This document shows, piece after piece, positions 41,021 to 46,501 of a stretch of 64,000 nt of DNA. Within the stretch, counting starts at the first letter, position 1. Each line of letters begins with the position of its first letter. Source of the DNA: a virus; UHGV virus genome UHGV-0109738; one strand, written 5' to 3'. Position numbers and translations under genes: made by a program. The notes beneath the pieces were generated by a model, which saw nothing but the letters and a program-made list of their open reading frames with translations, was not told the DNA's origin and made no database searches.

Positions 41021-42505
41021 TTAAAACCCTCGCAGGCGCTTAGGTAACATAAGGCCCATTGCCTGTGGCTGGCTTAGTTCGGTGATACCCCATACCATTG
41101 CGTCCATACGGTCAGGGGATTTTTTGGCGGTAGCTGGCACGTATTCCATCATTTGATTTTCCAGCGTATATAGCTCACCAGTGTGTGCCACCCTTCCTTG
41201 TGCATACAGTGCTGATATTGGTTCGGCGCGGGCGAATTTACCTTTGCTTGCGTGCACCTTAACAATGCGGCCTTTGAATCCTGCATTGCGTAGCGTGGCC
41301 TCTGCCATGTCACCGCCCTGGTTGGTTTCGATAACTATCGCGTCAGCTTCATGGATGTCATAAGCGTTCATTGCTGCTTGCGCCCAGTCGTTAGGCGACA
41401 TGCGGCCTGAATAGTCACCGTCTACTGAATACTGTGCGTACTTGCCGCCACCATAAGCGGAACACGCCATGATCCCCGTTTCGTCTGACTCATCAGATGA
41501 TGTTGTCGCAGGGTCAATAGCTATCACAGTGCGGATTTTCTCCTGCGTTATCTGCATCCGGTGCGCGGCGGTAATCATCGCCTCTGTCCACAACGCACCC
41601 TCTTCGTCGAATTTACGCGGGCGCTGCATGTACTGGGCCTCAAATGACCGTCTGTGTGCCTTCAGTCCAGCTTCATGGGCGTCATTGTGCTTTTTAGGCC
41701 ATAGCCAGCCATCTGGCAGGTTATGAGGAATGGGGATAGCGAACTCGTTTTCAGGATACAAATCCCGGTAGTCAACGCTGTTGTCGATTTTCACTGGCAG
41801 GTTCAAGTGATACCACTTTTCACCGCTTCCACCGCGTAGCAGGTAGCCGGACAAATCATCGTAGTGGATGCGCTGCATGATGACGATGACAGGCGTTGTT
41901 TGCACCGCCAGACGTGAAGCAAGCGTGTCGTTGTAGTTGGTGTTTACCTGCTTTCTCACCACGTCAGAGTAAGCGTCAGCGGGTTTTAATGGGTCGTCGA
42001 TGATTAACGCGCCATTAAATCCTGGCTCCATATACCCCGCACGGAACCCTGTAACCTGGCCAAGCGATGACGTTGCATACACGCCGCCACCGTATTCAGT
42101 CCACCACATTGATTTTGAGTTTGCATCGTTGCGGATCCTCATGGGCCACATTGCCTGATATTCAGGCGTACAGATCATGTTTCTTACGGTCGAGGAATTG
42201 AGTAACGCCAGGTTGTTGGAATAGGAGACATGAAGGAATCGTGTGCGGGGATTTATTGCGAGTGACCGCGCCATCATGTTGATAGTTGCGATCATGGTTT
42301 TGCCGTACCCTGGAGGGATGTTAATGATGAGTCGGGTTATCTCACCATTGACAACGCGTTGCAGTGCGTCGCGGATAGCTAAGTGATGGCCTGAGATTAA
42401 CATCTTCGTTCCGTTCGCTTGCTTATAGAAGTAGCGATTGAAAAACAGGCCATCGTTTTCACATTTGGACTGAATAACTCGTTCTTTGATTGTCAGCATA
42501 ATCAC
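41021..42505 (-). CDS. Terminase large subunit
   Basis: 494 aa; Walker A-like IPPGYGKT, Walker B-like LIIDDP, C-terminal nuclease-type acidic residues. Confidence 0.85.
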   Translation of the reverse strand: MIMLTIKERVIQSKCENDGLFFNRYFYKQANGTKMLISGHHLAIRDALQRVVNGEITRLIINIPPGYGKTMIATINMMARSLAINPRTRFLHVSYSNNLALLNSSTVRNMICTPEYQAMWPMRIRNDANSKSMWWTEYGGGVYATSSLGQVTGFRAGYMEPGFNGALIIDDPLKPADAYSDVVRKQVNTNYNDTLASRLAVQTTPVIVIMQRIHYDDLSGYLLRGGSGEKWYHLNLPVKIDNSVDYRDLYPENEFAIPIPHNLPDGWLWPKKHNDAHEAGLKAHRRSFEAQYMQRPRKFDEEGALWTEAMITAAHRMQITQEKIRTVIAIDPATTSSDESDETGIMACSAYGGGKYAQYSVDGDYSGRMSPNDWAQAAMNAYDIHEADAIVIETNQGGDMAEATLRNAGFKGRIVKVHASKGKFARAEPISALYAQGRVAHTGELYTLENQMMEYVPATAKKSPDRMDAMVWGITELSQPQAMGLMLPKRLRGF

Positions 42506-42987
42506 ACCTCATCTTCTACTTCCTGAACGATGCGGGCGATCTCTTCTTTTGTGACTTCTACCTGTACTGGTGCTTCTTCCCTGTTGCCTACGATTTCCTG
42601 CGTAACGCGTTCGCCATACTTACGCGGTTGCAGTTTTGCCAATAGCCATTTACGGGTTTCAATCATCAATTGATGGCGGCGGCATTGGTCTTTATCGGTG
42701 TTCTCCGCTGCGTCCGCTATGTCGATAATCTCATCAGCCAATACCTCAAAACCGATCTCTTTCGCGCGTATGTACATGTCCGAGAACTCTGGCACGTCTC
42801 TGAACCATTTAAGGATTGTTGAACGCGCAGGCATATCAGGCATCTTCGAAATCTTGTTAATACTTTGACCGTCCGCCACCAGCTCACAGATCTCTAATGC
42901 CTTTTCTTCGGTATAACCATGCGGACGGCCCACCTTTTTAGCTGCTGGCTTTTTATCGTCAGCTTTTGCCTTTTTAGTGCGGGCCAT
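42502..42987 (-). CDS. Terminase small subunit
   Basis: 161 aa, basic N-terminus with HTH-like segment; 4-nt overlap with large subunit. Confidence 0.6.
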   Translation of the reverse strand: MARTKKAKADDKKPAAKKVGRPHGYTEEKALEICELVADGQSINKISKMPDMPARSTILKWFRDVPEFSDMYIRAKEIGFEVLADEIIDIADAAENTDKDQCRRHQLMIETRKWLLAKLQPRKYGERVTQEIVGNREEAPVQVEVTKEEIARIVQEVEDEV

Positions 42988-43152
42988 ATTTCACCTCTCA
43001 AAACCATTTGCACAGAATATATAAACACGCAATTAATGTTGCGCAGTATGTTACCGTTTCCAGAAAGTCGAATAGCTCTTTCATTGATACCATCCACTTT
43101 ATTTGACTTGCTTAATTTAGGAAGCGCATAAAATGCGCGTCCAAGCCATAAC

Positions 43153-43221
43153 CTATTGAGTCAGTGCGGTCATGGTAAGAACAATCGCAACAATCAGGAA
43201 AAAGAAATCAAGCCATTTCAT
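43153..43221 (-). CDS. Mini-ORF a (22 aa, single TM): MKWLDFFFLIVAIVLTMTALTQ
   Basis: AGGGGG RBS 7 nt upstream of ATG. Confidence 0.4.
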   Translation of the reverse strand: MKWLDFFFLIVAIVLTMTALTQ

Positions 43222-43238
43222 TTTTAACCCCCTGCGAT

Positions 43239-43310
43239 TCAGTTGACACTTAAAAGCACCGCAACGATGACAATCACTATAATCATGCAAAAGAAGTCTG
43301 CTTCCCTCAT
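43239..43310 (-). CDS. Mini-ORF b (23 aa, single TM): MREADFFCMIIVIVIVAVLLSVN
   Basis: ATGA overlap with mini-ORF c; GAGGG RBS. Confidence 0.4.
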   Translation of the reverse strand: MREADFFCMIIVIVIVAVLLSVN

Positions 43311-43387
43311 CTTTTAAACCCTCGATAAAAATCAACGGCAATAACTGTAATAACAGCCACCAGCAATAGCATTTCGTATGCGTTCAT
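43307..43387 (-). CDS. Mini-ORF c (26 aa, single TM): MNAYEMLLLVAVITVIAVDFYRGFKR
   Basis: ATGA start/stop overlap with mini-ORF d. Confidence 0.4.
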   Translation of the reverse strand: MNAYEMLLLVAVITVIAVDFYRGFKR

Positions 43388-43482
43388 TTGATACTACCCA
43401 TAACAAGGCCGATGATTATGATTATGGCGACAACGCCTAGCATCATTCCGCACATAATCGCCAGTAATTCGAATATATCCAT
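43384..43482 (-). CDS. Mini-ORF d (32 aa, single TM): MDIFELLAIMCGMMLGVVAIIIIIGLVMGSIK
   Basis: AGGTGA RBS 4 nt upstream of ATG. Confidence 0.4.
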   Translation of the reverse strand: MDIFELLAIMCGMMLGVVAIIIIIGLVMGSIK

Positions 43483-43575
43483 GCCGTCACCTATACAACA
43501 TTCTTCCACCAGAAATAGATAATGACGGCTACACCGACCACCAGATGAGATCGTAAATATTCATGGTGAACACCT

Positions 43576-43650
43576 TCAGCTTTCAATGAATATCATGATC
43601 GCCAGCCATACAGCGACGCATAAAGAAAGGATAACGAGTGGGTCAATCAT
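43576..43650 (-). CDS. Mini-ORF e (24 aa, single TM): MIDPLVILSLCVAVWLAIMIFIES
   Basis: GAGGGG RBS; start overlaps the end of mini-ORF f. Confidence 0.4.
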   Translation of the reverse strand: MIDPLVILSLCVAVWLAIMIFIES

Positions 43651-43759
43651 CTTGCCCCTCCACCCAGCGCTTGATCTTTGCGTTTATTAGTGCAACTGCA
43701 ATAAAACCCACCAGATATACAGAAATGCCGATCAATCCGGCAATGATATAATCATCCAT
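43643..43759 (-). CDS. Mini-ORF f (38 aa, single TM): MDDYIIAGLIGISVYLVGFIAVALINAKIKRWVEGQDD
   Basis: GGTGA RBS 8 nt upstream; 4-nt gap after mini-ORF g. Confidence 0.4.
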   Translation of the reverse strand: MDDYIIAGLIGISVYLVGFIAVALINAKIKRWVEGQDD

Positions 43760-43763
43760 AACA

Positions 43764-43832
43764 TTATTCACCAACCAGTAATATTACAGCGGCAGCCATT
43801 CCGATAAACAAACCCAACAGAAAAGTAACCAT
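43764..43832 (-). CDS. Mini-ORF g (22 aa, single TM): MVTFLLGLFIGMAAAVILLVGE
   Basis: GGGGGTGA RBS; ATG 3 nt after stop of gene 43835-44419. Confidence 0.4.
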   Translation of the reverse strand: MVTFLLGLFIGMAAAVILLVGE

Positions 43833-43834
43833 AA

Positions 43835-44419
43835 TCACCCCCGTTTAAAGCTCATTACACGCGGTACAAGCGCTTCTTTTGCTTTAGGCTTACGTTTGCC
43901 TTTCTTCGCTGGTTTTTTCTCTTCTTTCGGCTCCTCTGCCTGTTCAACTGCCTGTTCTGCTGCATCAGTCGCCTTTTCCGCCTGGTCTAATGCCTGCTCT
44001 ACGACTTCAGCCGCCTGCATTGCTGCAACCTGTGCTTCGTTTGATTCTGCCAGGATTGGGAAGAATGCGTCAAAGATGCGGCCTACCATGTAAGCATATG
44101 TCTCGTTTGCTGGGTGAGTTGGATCAGTGGTCGCCACGACGCCTACATCACTTAAAACGTGGAATGTAGTGTGTGCGCATTCATGTACCAGCGTTCCTAA
44201 CTCATTATCGAATACTGCGATCACGTAGAAGTTACCGCCTTTCTCACCCGTGCAGGTTAATGTCAGGCCGCCTGCCAGTTCGAAATCAGGTTCGATCGGA
44301 ATCCCTGCCTTCTCGCAAAATTCATAAAACATGTCGCGGGTCGGGCAGAAGAAAACAGTTGTATGCTCAAAGAGCGGAACTTTGAATTGAGGCAACTTGA
44401 TGCCTTTAGCCTTAGCCAT
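43835..44419 (-). CDS. Hypothetical protein with HExxH metallopeptidase-like motif
   Basis: 194 aa; LVHECAHTTFH motif; Ala/Glu-rich linker and lysine-rich C-terminal tail; between Rz and the mini-ORF array. Confidence 0.45.
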   Translation of the reverse strand: MAKAKGIKLPQFKVPLFEHTTVFFCPTRDMFYEFCEKAGIPIEPDFELAGGLTLTCTGEKGGNFYVIAVFDNELGTLVHECAHTTFHVLSDVGVVATTDPTHPANETYAYMVGRIFDAFFPILAESNEAQVAAMQAAEVVEQALDQAEKATDAAEQAVEQAEEPKEEKKPAKKGKRKPKAKEALVPRVMSFKRG

Positions 44420-44698
44420 CAGAATATTCCTCTATCCTGAAAAATATAACCCCCGCAAAACTGGACACCGCAGGGAGTGAAAACAGCTATAAAACACTAA
44501 AAACGGCGCTGCATGAGTACCGTTTTCAGAATTTTATAAAACTGGATAATGGCGCTTTCTTCTACCCAGGTAGCGCCCTACCTGTTAATGAGGTTGTTTA
44601 CCAGGTATTACGTGTTTTTGACTATTCCGCCGTCGCTCGCGGGAAGGATTGGCCCGGTTATGGCTGGCTGGCAGAAACGGCGACACGTCCACGCGCTG

Positions 44699-45169
44699 TT
44701 ATTCTTTGCGTAAGCACTGCGTTTTGATGTAGTCCTGTAACCCAGTGATCTGAGCGTCTTTCGTTTTTAGTTGTTCTCTGAGGGATAGATAAGCTGATTC
44801 AGCGTCGGGAGTGAGTCTACAGGTGGCTCCATCAATGGCGCTGGCGGATCCGGTGGGGTCAGACACTCGCACGGGCGTTGCGTTGACGCGCAGCCGGATA
44901 GTGCCGTTATCAATACCAGTGCGCAGATCGGCAATGTCAGATCTGATAGCTTTAATTTCATCGTGATACCTCTTATCAAGTTTTGACAGTTCGGCGTTTC
45001 GCTCCTTCATCTGCTGAATAGTATTACTTGCTGTTTTTAGTGCGCCCTGCGTAGTAGTTAGCTCGCTTTGCATTGTGTTTATCACTGACTGGCAATGACT
45101 GAGCGCGGCAACAAGGCCAACAACAATACAAACAACAACGGCGATGATTAACGTCTTCACCTTGTCCAT
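44699..45169 (-). CDS. Spanin, inner-membrane subunit (Rz-like)
   Basis: 156 aa, N-terminal TM then coiled-coil; follows endolysin; contains an embedded +1-frame lipoprotein gene. Confidence 0.7.
44767..44961 (-). CDS. Spanin, outer-membrane lipoprotein subunit (Rz1-like), embedded in Rz
   Basis: [24 protein letters not shown] lipobox followed by Pro-rich sequence; entirely within Rz in another frame. Confidence 0.65.
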   Translation of the reverse strand: MKLKLSDLTLPICALVLITALSGCASTQRPCECLTPPDPPAPLMEPPVDSLPTLNQLIYPSENN

Positions 45170-45648
45170 GTTTCACCCCATTCGCAAACGGCATATTCAA
45201 CCTCGCGGCGGTTAACCAGGCCTTGCCACTTCTTACCGCCAGCGTATACCCAGCGTTTAAGCTGTGCGCACGCTTCTGATTTCTTGCCGTCATTGAGTAG
45301 CTTCAATAAGGTTGATGTTTTGAAATTGGTAGCGCCTACGTTATAGGCGAATGAATAAAGTGCTGCGCGGGTAAAATCTGATATTTCGACTTTAATATAG
45401 GGATCGATCGCTTTTGCGGTCTTGTGTAGATCTTTATTTAACAAAGCATCGCATTCTGATTGCGTGTAAGTCTTGCCAAGCATGATGTCTTTTCCCGTAT
45501 GACCGTGGCAAACAGTCCATACACCAACAACATCACGATAAGGATTGTAATCAACTCCCTCTAATGGCTTAATCATCACCGCCGCAATAGCGATCGCCCC
45601 ACCAGCCGCCGCCGCAACAATCTTGTTTTTCAGCGATTGGCTAATCAT
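45157..45648 (-). CDS. SAR endolysin (phage lysozyme with signal-anchor-release domain)
   Basis: Start at [10 protein letters not shown]; Gly/Ala-rich weakly hydrophobic N-terminus then [28 protein letters not shown] (E-x8-D-x5-T catalytic triad pattern as in phage 21 R). Confidence 0.85.
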
Positions 45649-45649
45649 G

Positions 45650-45850
45650 TTACTTATTCCCCATTCGCGCGTCGTGTTCCTCTTGCGCTCGCTTGTTCTC
45701 CTGTGATTTGAAGTAATAGTTAACGGCAAATGTGCCTACGGTTGATAAGATACCCACAAAGACGGCAATATCATTGATGGTTATCGCGCCGAAAAAAGCA
45801 GTTACGGCCCCAGTCACATACGCGCACGCCTCCCGTATTCTGTCGAACAT
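45650..45850 (-). CDS. Holin (pinholin-like, two TM segments)
   Basis: 66 aa, two hydrophobic segments and charged C-terminus; immediately upstream of the SAR endolysin. Confidence 0.6.
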
Positions 45851-46306
45851 AGATTTTCCTCCAACAAAGCAAAAACCCGGCGCGGGGCCGGGTAGTTATA
45901 GTTTCGCATTGTTAGAGAATATTTTAATCTGTTTGTTTACGACCTACAAATACGGCGTTACGGCTTTCTATATATCAGGCCATTATCAAGCAATGTTTGC
46001 ATATGCCACCGATCCATGTCGCTTAATTCCCAATAAGGAACATCATCAGGTCTTATCATCACCGATTCACCTCTAACCAAATAGGCGATGTTAAATACCT
46101 TATGTAAATAGATGCCATCTTCGATCTCGTTCATAGGTCGCTAACCTTAAACAGTATGCCTTTATCAACGCCACGCTTAATGTCTTCCCTTGTTGTTTTG
46201 AAGAACGGCTCATATTCCCCACCATCGAAGCTGATTGTTACAGTATCGCCGCCCACTATGTAAAAAACGTTCTCCATCAGGTTTACACCATAGATACCGT
46301 CTTCAA

Positions 46307-46501
46307 TCATTTCTTGCGCTCCTTAATAGCTCGCTTGATCTGCACTACCGTAGCATCGAAGAAAGCGAGAAACATCACTACAGGCCATAAAGGAATCTCA
46401 AGGCCACCACGATCGAGATCGTTATATTTGATGAAACAAGACATCAGGATAGCGCCAGCGATATAAAGGAGAAATACAGCAAAGATAAGACATTCAATCA
46501 T
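46307..46501 (-). CDS. Small membrane protein (64 aa)
   Basis: Two hydrophobic helices. Confidence 0.3.
   Translation of the reverse strand: MIECLIFAVFLLYIAGAILMSCFIKYNDLDRGGLEIPLWPVVMFLAFFDATVVQIKRAIKERKK

Follow-up and report, generated by a model that had tools for sequence, protein, structure and literature searches.

Here, we describe an array of very short genes for hydrophobic peptides in the virus genome UHGV-0109738, of which one stretch of 64,000 nucleotides (nt), referred to as the window, was analysed. The array occupies a gap of 847 nt on the minus strand, from the stop codon of a gene for a gp49-like protein to the start codon of the gene for the small terminase subunit (TerS), and comprises eight intact cassettes (A, B, C, E, F, G, H, and M) together with one frameshifted cassette (D). 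An initial annotation had placed seven minus-strand ATG open reading frames (ORFs) at 43153-43832, between the lysis cassette and the terminase genes, and had read them as coupled mini-genes for single-helix hydrophobic peptides. All seven are there and their position is borne out, as are the coupling (ATGA overlaps at E/F and F/G, 8 nt at B/C) and the hydrophobicity; the extent was drawn too short, as an eighth cassette (M) lies at 42998-43093 and a ninth (D) is present in frameshifted form. The array is a lineage-specific, largely unannotated, and hypervariable set of single-helix membrane mini-genes, and the element that hosts it is a prophage of the mEp021 group (mEpimmI). Our comparisons draw on 67 loci, namely the window, 17 annotated records, 2 metagenomic contigs, and 47 IMG/VR contigs.

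The cassettes and their products

All cassettes lie on the minus strand and are given here in their order of translation. Cassette A (43832..43764) encodes 22 amino acids (aa), MVTFLLGLFIGMAAAVILLVGE, starting 2 nt past the gp49-like stop codon behind the Shine-Dalgarno (SD) sequence GGGGGTGA, which has a pairing energy of -11.9 kcal/mol; orthologues are found in 44 of the 67 loci. It is followed by B (43759..43643; 38 aa, MDDYIIAGLIGISVYLVGFIAVALINAKIKRWVEGQDD), which overlaps by 8 nt with C (43650..43576; 24 aa, MIDPLVILSLCVAVWLAIMIFIES), a near-universal core cassette. The 93-nt "hole" between C and E is filled by D (43564..43491), a pseudogene that reads MNIYDLIWWSV up to a stop codon and continues as VAVIIYFWWKNVV in another frame, having been broken by a 1-nt deletion. 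In its intact form, D is a 24-aa ORF, MNIYDLIWWSVVAVIIYFWWKNVV; 43 of 47 copies are intact, and so is D in L004, a relative with 97% identity. The identical lesion is also found in the IMG/VR contig IMGVR_UViG_3300029816_000005 (L022), whose gp49 is 100% identical.

Cassette E (43482..43384; 32 aa, MDIFELLAIMCGMMLGVVAIIIIIGLVMGSIK) carries two GxxxG motifs and shares an ATGA overlap with the core cassette F (43387..43307; 26 aa, MNAYEMLLLVAVITVIAVDFYRGFKR; found in 64 of the loci), which in turn is joined by ATGA to G (43310..43239; 23 aa, MREADFFCMIIVIVIVAVLLSVN). A further core cassette, H (43221..43153; 22 aa, MKWLDFFFLIVAIVLTMTALTQ), is found in 62 loci and has the SD sequence AGGGGG (-10.6 kcal/mol). 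The last cassette, M (43093 or 43084..42998), encodes (MVS)MKELFDFLETVTYCATLIACLYILCKWF, the shorter form running MKELFDFLETV..CKWF, and ends 10 nt short of the TerS start. Its product has 31 aa from the ATG at 43093 or 28 aa from that at 43084, the second of which has the better SD pairing (-6.9 vs -1.6 kcal/mol), and it is present in 58 of the 67 loci, with a variant in 6 more. Six of the cassettes A, B, C, E, F, G, and H have SD pairing energies of -6.4 to -11.9 kcal/mol; F has a weak SD (-4.0 kcal/mol), but its ATG overlaps the stop codon of E. The 59-nt spacer between H and M contains a hairpin, GGACGCGCAT-TTT-ATGCGCTTCC, at about 43120-43143 (minus strand), which is not followed by a T-run and recurs in relatives of G-H-M architecture, mEp021 among them.

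The best 15-residue Kyte-Doolittle means are 2.5-3.6 for A, B, C, E, F, G, and H and 2.1-3.6 across the cassette families, and the Hessa energy summed over 17 residues is negative in 11 of 15 families. An acidic residue stands in the N-terminal flank of 2-8 residues in 13 of the 15, and the C-terminal flank is absent, neutral, or basic/aromatic (..FYRGFKR, ..WWKNVV, ..CKWF, ..KIKRW), with tails of 0-13 aa, or 16 aa in L, a cassette that this window lacks. Each product is predicted to be a single-pass inner-membrane mini-protein with a hydrophobic helix of about 17-20 residues, and from the distribution of charges the positive-inside rule predicts that it would insert N-out/C-in. Small YidC-type substrates such as the Pf3 coat protein insert likewise. 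We also considered a lipoprotein reading of cassette C, based on an LSAC motif, and rejected it, as the segment ahead of the motif is too short and acidic and the window has LSLC instead.

Coding evidence and cassette turnover

Are such short ORFs genuine genes? To judge what chance would yield, ATG ORFs of 20-60 aa with a 15-residue Kyte-Doolittle hydropathy of at least 2.4 were counted and compared with 500 dinucleotide-style shuffles. The gap holds seven such hydrophobic mini-ORFs on the sense strand and none on the antisense strand (shuffles: mean 0.31, maximum 2), and once the array region is set aside, at most two are found in any 847-nt stretch on either strand of the 64-kb window. Across the 67 loci the gap is 213-1,154 nt long, and its 2-13 hydrophobic mini-ORFs (median 9) cover a median of 90% of it. 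The sense strands of these gaps hold 680 ATG ORFs of 18 aa or more, of which 605 are hydrophobic mini-ORFs, and these 605 represent 236 distinct peptides in about 19 clusters.

Substitution patterns point the same way. Pairwise Nei-Gojobori comparison in the proposed frames gives proportions of synonymous (pS) and nonsynonymous (pN) differences of 0.276 and 0.073, a ratio of 0.26, whereas pN/pS rises to 0.89 and 1.51 when this DNA is translated in the +1 and +2 frames. The ratio lies at 0.09-0.45 in each of 16 clusters (for example 0.28 for C, 0.12 for E, 0.24 for F, 0.14 for H, and 0.09 for M) and at 0.34 for TerS of the same loci, and variable sites fall 127, 78, and 225 times on codon positions 1, 2, and 3. 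The initial annotation had staked its reading on conservation at the protein level in relatives, and the frame-specific ratios supply it. In addition, pairing with the 3' end of 16S rRNA is stronger at the proposed starts (mean -6.5 kcal/mol) than at other ATGs of the array (-4.1 kcal/mol; p = 8e-21), and 513 of the 526 cassette copies that are recognisable at the DNA level are intact ORFs (97.5%). As judged from these sequence comparisons, the cassettes are shown to be protein-coding mini-genes, each an SD sequence with 22-38 codons, whose amino-acid sequence is under purifying selection. The commonest spacing between cassettes is -4, that is ATGA (106 times), followed by +8 (79 times) and by -8 and +11 (48 times each); since the cassettes abut or overlap (by ATGA or by 8 nt), their translation is probably coupled.

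The same data bear on the idea that the gap serves as a non-coding element of DNA or RNA (for instance a pac site, another site bound by terminase, or a structured RNA) in which the ORFs are incidental. A position directly upstream of a headful-type small terminase gene would suit such an element, as would the conserved hairpin between H and M, but neither the frame-specific selection with its third-position excess of variable sites nor the strand-specificity of the ORFs would be expected of it. Indels of whole cassettes also misfit a fixed site architecture, and an Rfam scan of 42400-46200 returned nothing relevant, so that we find this explanation hardly credible.

The repertoire consists of about 17 cassette types in one fixed order, A'/A-B-N-C-D-O-E-F-G-H-I-J-K-L-M, from which each phage has a subset. 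Fifty distinct collinear architectures are seen among the 67 loci: C, F, H, and M are near-universal (58-65 loci) and the remaining cassettes come and go, with five in mEp021, twelve in MagusPhagus, and minimal arrays of K-M (L019) and A-B-M (L048). This comparison shows that the array changes by gain and loss of whole cassettes, with 2-13 per phage. The junction that follows gp49, TTAAACGrGGsTGATT-ATG (TTAAACGGGGGTGATT-ATG), is constant in all loci, whichever cassette comes next, and similar SD-containing junctions recur ahead of different cassettes, which suggests that whole units may be lost and gained by recombination between junctions.

A single paralogous family, as first proposed for the peptides, is too broad a description. 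Shuffle-controlled alignments give z>3 for 11 of 105 cassette pairs, so that paralogy holds within two subgroups, F-N-D and G-H-K-J (F-N 10, G-K 9.0, H-K 7.3, G-H 6.6, D-N 4.3), and does not extend to all cassettes. At the DNA level the repeats between some cassettes are short and weak, which rules out recent tandem duplication and indicates that the duplications are old; not all cassettes are demonstrably related. Elsewhere in the window, the initial annotation had pointed to similar mini-ORFs at 57296-57388 and 59119-59360, and these do exist. They amount to three more single-transmembrane (TM) mini-ORFs on the minus strand of the early region, at 57296-57388 (30 aa), 59247-59360 (37 aa), and 59119-59238 (39 aa), which are conserved at the amino-acid level in mEp021, where they are unannotated, and which bear a weak likeness to the array peptides (z about 3).

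Could selection on the cassettes be slight, with the array made up of near-functionless T-rich proto-genes whose translation is kept up only in order to hold ribosomes on the late mRNA or to adjust how strongly TerS is translated? Base composition would agree with this, the coding strand of the array being 35% T and its GC content of 40.5% lying below the 48-51% of the flanking genes. So would the orphan status of the families, a copy number free to range from 2 to 13, and the fact that one cassette of the window (D) is already a pseudogene. Against this, the in-frame pN/pS of 0.26 is as low as that of TerS, nearly all copies are intact, substitutions are conservative, and the identity and order of cassettes are kept over a synonymous divergence of 15-20%; moreover, TerS has its own SD sequence. 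We therefore judge the proto-gene explanation to be very unlikely.

Phage group, flanking genes, and late operon

The array DNA is 85-97% identical to that of the temperate coliphages mEp021, mEp044, mEp010, mEp013, mEp554, mEp515, and MagusPhagus, and array-matching prophages are present in 35 of 5,426 complete Escherichia coli genomes. A distant blastn search against phages and E. coli genomes confines the array to the mEp021 group, and a pattern scan of 2.9 million viral contigs confines exact peptide 8-mers to the same group of contigs. The lambdoid-phage modules among which the array was originally sought are not the proper frame, as the phage is a member of the mEpimmI group, to which the array is restricted. 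According to the authors of the group, mEpimmI phages are Nus-dependent yet non-lambdoid (PMC11893012).

The mEpimmI genome paper makes no mention of transmembrane or small ORFs in the array region, and annotation has largely passed over it. PGAP calls no gene in the region in most of the 35 array-bearing E. coli chromosomes, and phage records annotate 0-4 of 7-12 cassettes. Where coding sequences are called in the array they are often wrong (phage records L002, L003, L010, and L011; PGAP annotations L004, L012, L013, and L015), using either frames that hold no conserved ORF or far-upstream starts that read through the preceding cassette, as in a 67-70-aa "hypothetical protein" that encloses the 32-aa cassette E. 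Family scans were run with the eight peptides of the window, other cassette types being covered in part (some libraries each). For none of the eight did Pfam, NCBIfam, PHROGs, or PADLOC return a hit that reached or approached threshold, and the sole sub-threshold noise was a match of cassette L, absent from the window, to the holin family phrog_920 (E = 0.04). Those peptides of the window with fewer than 30 aa have no entry in a collection that comprises some 15 billion predicted proteins, in which B (as the exact sequence) and E, together with L of the relatives, occur solely as "hypothetical protein"; for L, a large protein collection has no homologue below 70% identity. A comparable array was not found in a phage small-protein review or in full-text searches, which cover the phage small-gene literature incompletely, so that a prior mention is possible.

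In mEp021, the syntenic order is Q, small genes, terminator, holin, lysozyme, Rz, a hairpin, gp49, the unannotated gap, TerS, TerL, and portal. Downstream of the array in the window lies TerS (42502..42987, minus strand), which is of the Sf6 type (PF20901, E = 1.5e-37) and syntenic with mEp021_50. The upstream neighbour is the gp49-like protein (43835..44419, minus strand), which has 194 aa and an invariant HExxH motif. Its homologues in P22-like phages, orf129 and hkcC, are 36-46% identical, and P22-like phages with such a homologue have no mini-ORF array; in ST64T and epsilon34, orf129 occupies the same lysis-to-terminase slot and is followed by an ordinary 134-aa gene instead of mini-ORFs. 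P22 itself (BK000583.1) has an unannotated homologue of the gp49 N-domain (36% identity over 117 aa; 2501-2833 of locus L069, corresponding to 13861-14193 of the record) between sieA and orf59a, beneath a feature labelled only as the sieA promoter, and in HK620 the equivalent gene is annotated as hkcC. HNH homing-endonuclease genes are found at differing points of the lysis-to-terminase region in relatives (mEp013, L011, 1567-2052; L036; L018, 2252-2773; L019, 4750-5253), and given these insertions the region is an insertion hotspot.

Given this neighbour, one option is that the peptides are partners or membrane anchors of the gp49-like HExxH protein, a putative metallopeptidase, and would recruit it, regulate it, or be processed by it on the cytoplasmic side of the membrane. 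In all loci the gp49 stop codon and the start codon of whichever cassette comes first are coupled, with a conserved junction, and gp49 has a long helix and Lys-rich tail that, like the array, are restricted to the mEp021 group, P22-like orf129 having neither these nor the array. However, the gp49 protein has no membrane segment, and the adjacency may reflect only a shared accessory slot. We regard a partnership with gp49 as quite unlikely.

The lysis genes lie further upstream, also on the minus strand, and are assigned to the phage 21 type. A two-TM-domain holin of 66 aa is encoded at 45650-45850 (so labelled by Pfam and by the mEp021 annotation), a signal-arrest-release (SAR) endolysin at 45157-45648, and Rz at 44699-45169 with Rz1 embedded at 44767-44961. 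The endolysin matches R21 of phage 21 (3HDE) with E = 3e-65 in an alignment that spans the Gly/Ala-rich N-terminal SAR segment, and it is also homologous to RrrD. The holins of 48 related loci share 96% identity on average, and the SAR domain hardly varies across loci.

Just upstream of the holin gene, a late-promoter-like site (46009..45982, minus strand) is followed by a strong intrinsic terminator (45893..45875, minus strand), and in the annotation of mEp021, Q lies upstream and the equivalent position has a terminator with a score of 100. A Q-dependent late promoter would be expected to look like this, which places the array inside the late transcript. Read from these putative signals and from gene order, the layout shows the array to sit in a Q-dependent late operon, downstream of the lysis genes. 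A promoter consensus scan of the coding strand from gp49 to TerS, which is a weak test, found nothing above shuffle expectation; on the antisense strand of the array, promoter-like sites are no more frequent than expected by chance and terminators are absent. Within the presumed late transcript, the non-coding gap of about 280 nt between Rz and gp49 (44420-44698, minus strand) contains a hairpin followed by a T-run (AAAACGG..CCGTTTTTAGTGTTTT), at the equivalent of which mEp021 has an annotated terminator. A 64-aa protein with two predicted TM helices (MIECLIFAVFLLYIAGAILMSCF...) is encoded at 46307-46501 (minus strand), just upstream of the late-promoter region, and is variable but conserved in relatives.

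Possible roles of the peptides

What might a set of bare membrane helices do for a phage? The peptides probably act in the cell membrane around the time of lysis. The roles first suggested for them (lysis-timing modulators, toxins, and exclusion peptides) are all still candidates, but membership of a known family could be shown for none of them; to superinfection-exclusion membrane proteins of the SieA, Imm, Sp, and HK97 gp15 type, the PHROGs and PADLOC scans gave no homology. One comparison is with the type I toxins (Ibs, ShoB, Ldr/Fst, TisB, DinQ, and ZorO), which like the array peptides are small (19-50 aa), consist of one hydrophobic helix with a polar, aromatic, or basic C-terminus, and are duplicated in tandem in "intergenic" regions that routinely go unannotated (PMC2887945). 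The peptides could accordingly be generic membrane toxins of this kind (as are Ibs, ShoB, Ldr, Fst, and TisB), which upon late mass expression would depolarise the membrane and shut down the host without specific partners, and they do share the published type I hallmarks: they are shorter than 70 aa, have a single TM helix and a C-terminus that is polar or aromatic, lie in tandem, and escape gene finders (PMC2887945). Unlike type I loci, the array has no sequence homology to any toxin family and no antisense RNA units: its cassettes, 70-100 nt apart or overlapping, are translationally coupled units of one phage late operon, with no space for individual promoters or antisense RNAs, and antisense signals are at chance or absent, as described above. 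It also comprises about 17 ordered types in place of one repeated locus, and purifying selection on distinct, ordered types implies more than bulk hydrophobicity. Since, in addition, the holin already depolarises the cell, a generic toxin role appears unlikely.

Tandem mini-ORFs that have their own ribosome-binding sites and escape annotation are familiar from staphylococcal psm-alpha, where consecutive ORFs of about 20 codons share one transcript and long went unannotated. The array resembles psm-alpha in these respects, but PSMs are amphipathic and secreted, whereas the array peptides are uniformly hydrophobic TM helices encoded in a late operon.

Single TM helices of 20-50 aa that bind larger membrane proteins are well known, including the bacterial regulators AcrZ, MgrB, MgtS/MgtR, KdpF, and PmrR, the viral BPV E5, and the artificial "traptamers". 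The array peptides are like these binders in being single TM helices and in having, in some cassettes, GxxxG-type packing motifs; they differ from AcrZ/MgrB-type regulators, which are single genes, in being hypervariable and without homology. In this light, the array could be a library of TM-helix binders that serve as conflict effectors, each directed against a different membrane protein of the host or of a competitor, such as the injection channel of a superinfecting phage, a membrane-anchored defence effector, a transporter, or a protease, and the shuffling of cassettes would adapt the phage to its hosts and rivals. In favour of this, cassettes vary extremely in presence and absence (50 architectures in 67 loci), each being individually under purifying selection; the families are orphans restricted to one lineage; GxxxG-type motifs are present in A and E; and in family N the variability is limited to one face of the helix (p = 0.001). 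The slot also houses variable accessory genes in P22-like phages, and the array is like the "moron"-type genes of P22-like and lambdoid phages both in occupying the lysis-to-terminase slot and in varying by presence and absence among syntenic relatives; it differs from these in lacking a detected promoter or terminator of its own, and the P22-like slot genes are of ordinary size. Set against a role in conflict are the lack of an above-chance promoter for expression in the lysogen, a late expression that would be ill-timed for anti-defence or exclusion, the near-universal and thus not variable presence of four cassettes (C, F, H, and M), and the absence of PADLOC or PHROG similarity. We see the conflict-effector library as possible but doubtful.

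The reading that we tentatively favour, while holding it with less than even confidence, is that the peptides are accessory modulators of the lysis clock. Lysis timing by S21/R21 depends on interactions between transmembrane helices and on membrane potential (proton-motive force). As products of late-operon genes, the peptides would accumulate in the membrane alongside the holin, the SAR endolysin, and the spanins, where such small helices might bind the holin or SAR helices or might gradually load and depolarise the bilayer, and either action could advance or delay the triggering of lysis. Since the holin and the SAR domain are almost invariant, in contrast to the hypervariable array, the timing may be tuned through the content of cassettes. 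A precedent is the "releasin" gp25 of phage Mu, a small membrane protein of N-out/C-in topology whose gene lies near that of a SAR endolysin and which controls the release of this endolysin (PMC9239132). Like releasin and antiholins, the array peptides would be small membrane proteins (N-out/C-in by charge-based prediction only) encoded a few genes downstream of a SAR endolysin, here 0.9-2 kb upstream of the array, and presumably co-expressed with it. They differ in being essentially without a soluble domain, releasin having 99 aa with a cytoplasmic domain of 73 aa that belongs to DUF2730 (PMC9239132), and in occurring in up to 13 copies with no DUF2730, holin, or PHROG lysis match.

Several observations weigh against a role in the lysis clock. 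About 280 nt with a hairpin and T-run, as well as the gp49-like gene, separate the array from the lysis genes, and unrelated accessory genes fill the same slot in P22-like phages, which makes position alone weak evidence. The peptides bear no likeness to the holin TM domains, the SAR helix, or the Rz TM domain above shuffle expectation, and no toxin, holin, antiholin, or releasin family was matched in the Pfam, NCBIfam, and PHROG scans. Helical periodicity of the variable sites, which a specific helix-helix interface would be expected to produce, is marginal at best (Fisher p = 0.016, due to a single family), and as few as two cassettes suffice in one phage (L019). A single phage with as many as 13 different lysis modulators would, to our knowledge, have no precedent. 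Because the lysis cassette hardly varies, a comparison of array content with the type of holin or endolysin tells nothing about covariation. An origin of the cassettes from lysis-protein helices was also considered and set aside, there being no similarity to the TM domains of holin, SAR, or Rz.

A wider proposition, which we put forward as speculative and rather doubtful, is that the array is a combinatorial, cassette-shuffled repertoire of minimal TM helices that serve as programmable membrane effectors, be it as a lysis clock tunable by gene content or as a library of helix binders. No part of phage and bacterial proteomes is less well understood than the small membrane proteins, and annotation fails to see most genes of the array. 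The array is a compact natural system, with dozens of selected single-helix mini-proteins that vary combinatorially between close relatives, and it is experimentally tractable because plaque-forming phages carry it (mEp021 with 5 cassettes, mEp044, mEp010, and MagusPhagus with 12). It is also useful as a benchmark for small-ORF prediction. What a bare transmembrane helix does for a virus can thereby be addressed, as can the question of how lysis timing or membrane-level conflict may evolve through gene content and not through point mutation. If the proposition of an effector repertoire is true, it would constitute a new class of phage function, encoded almost wholly below the size threshold of annotation.

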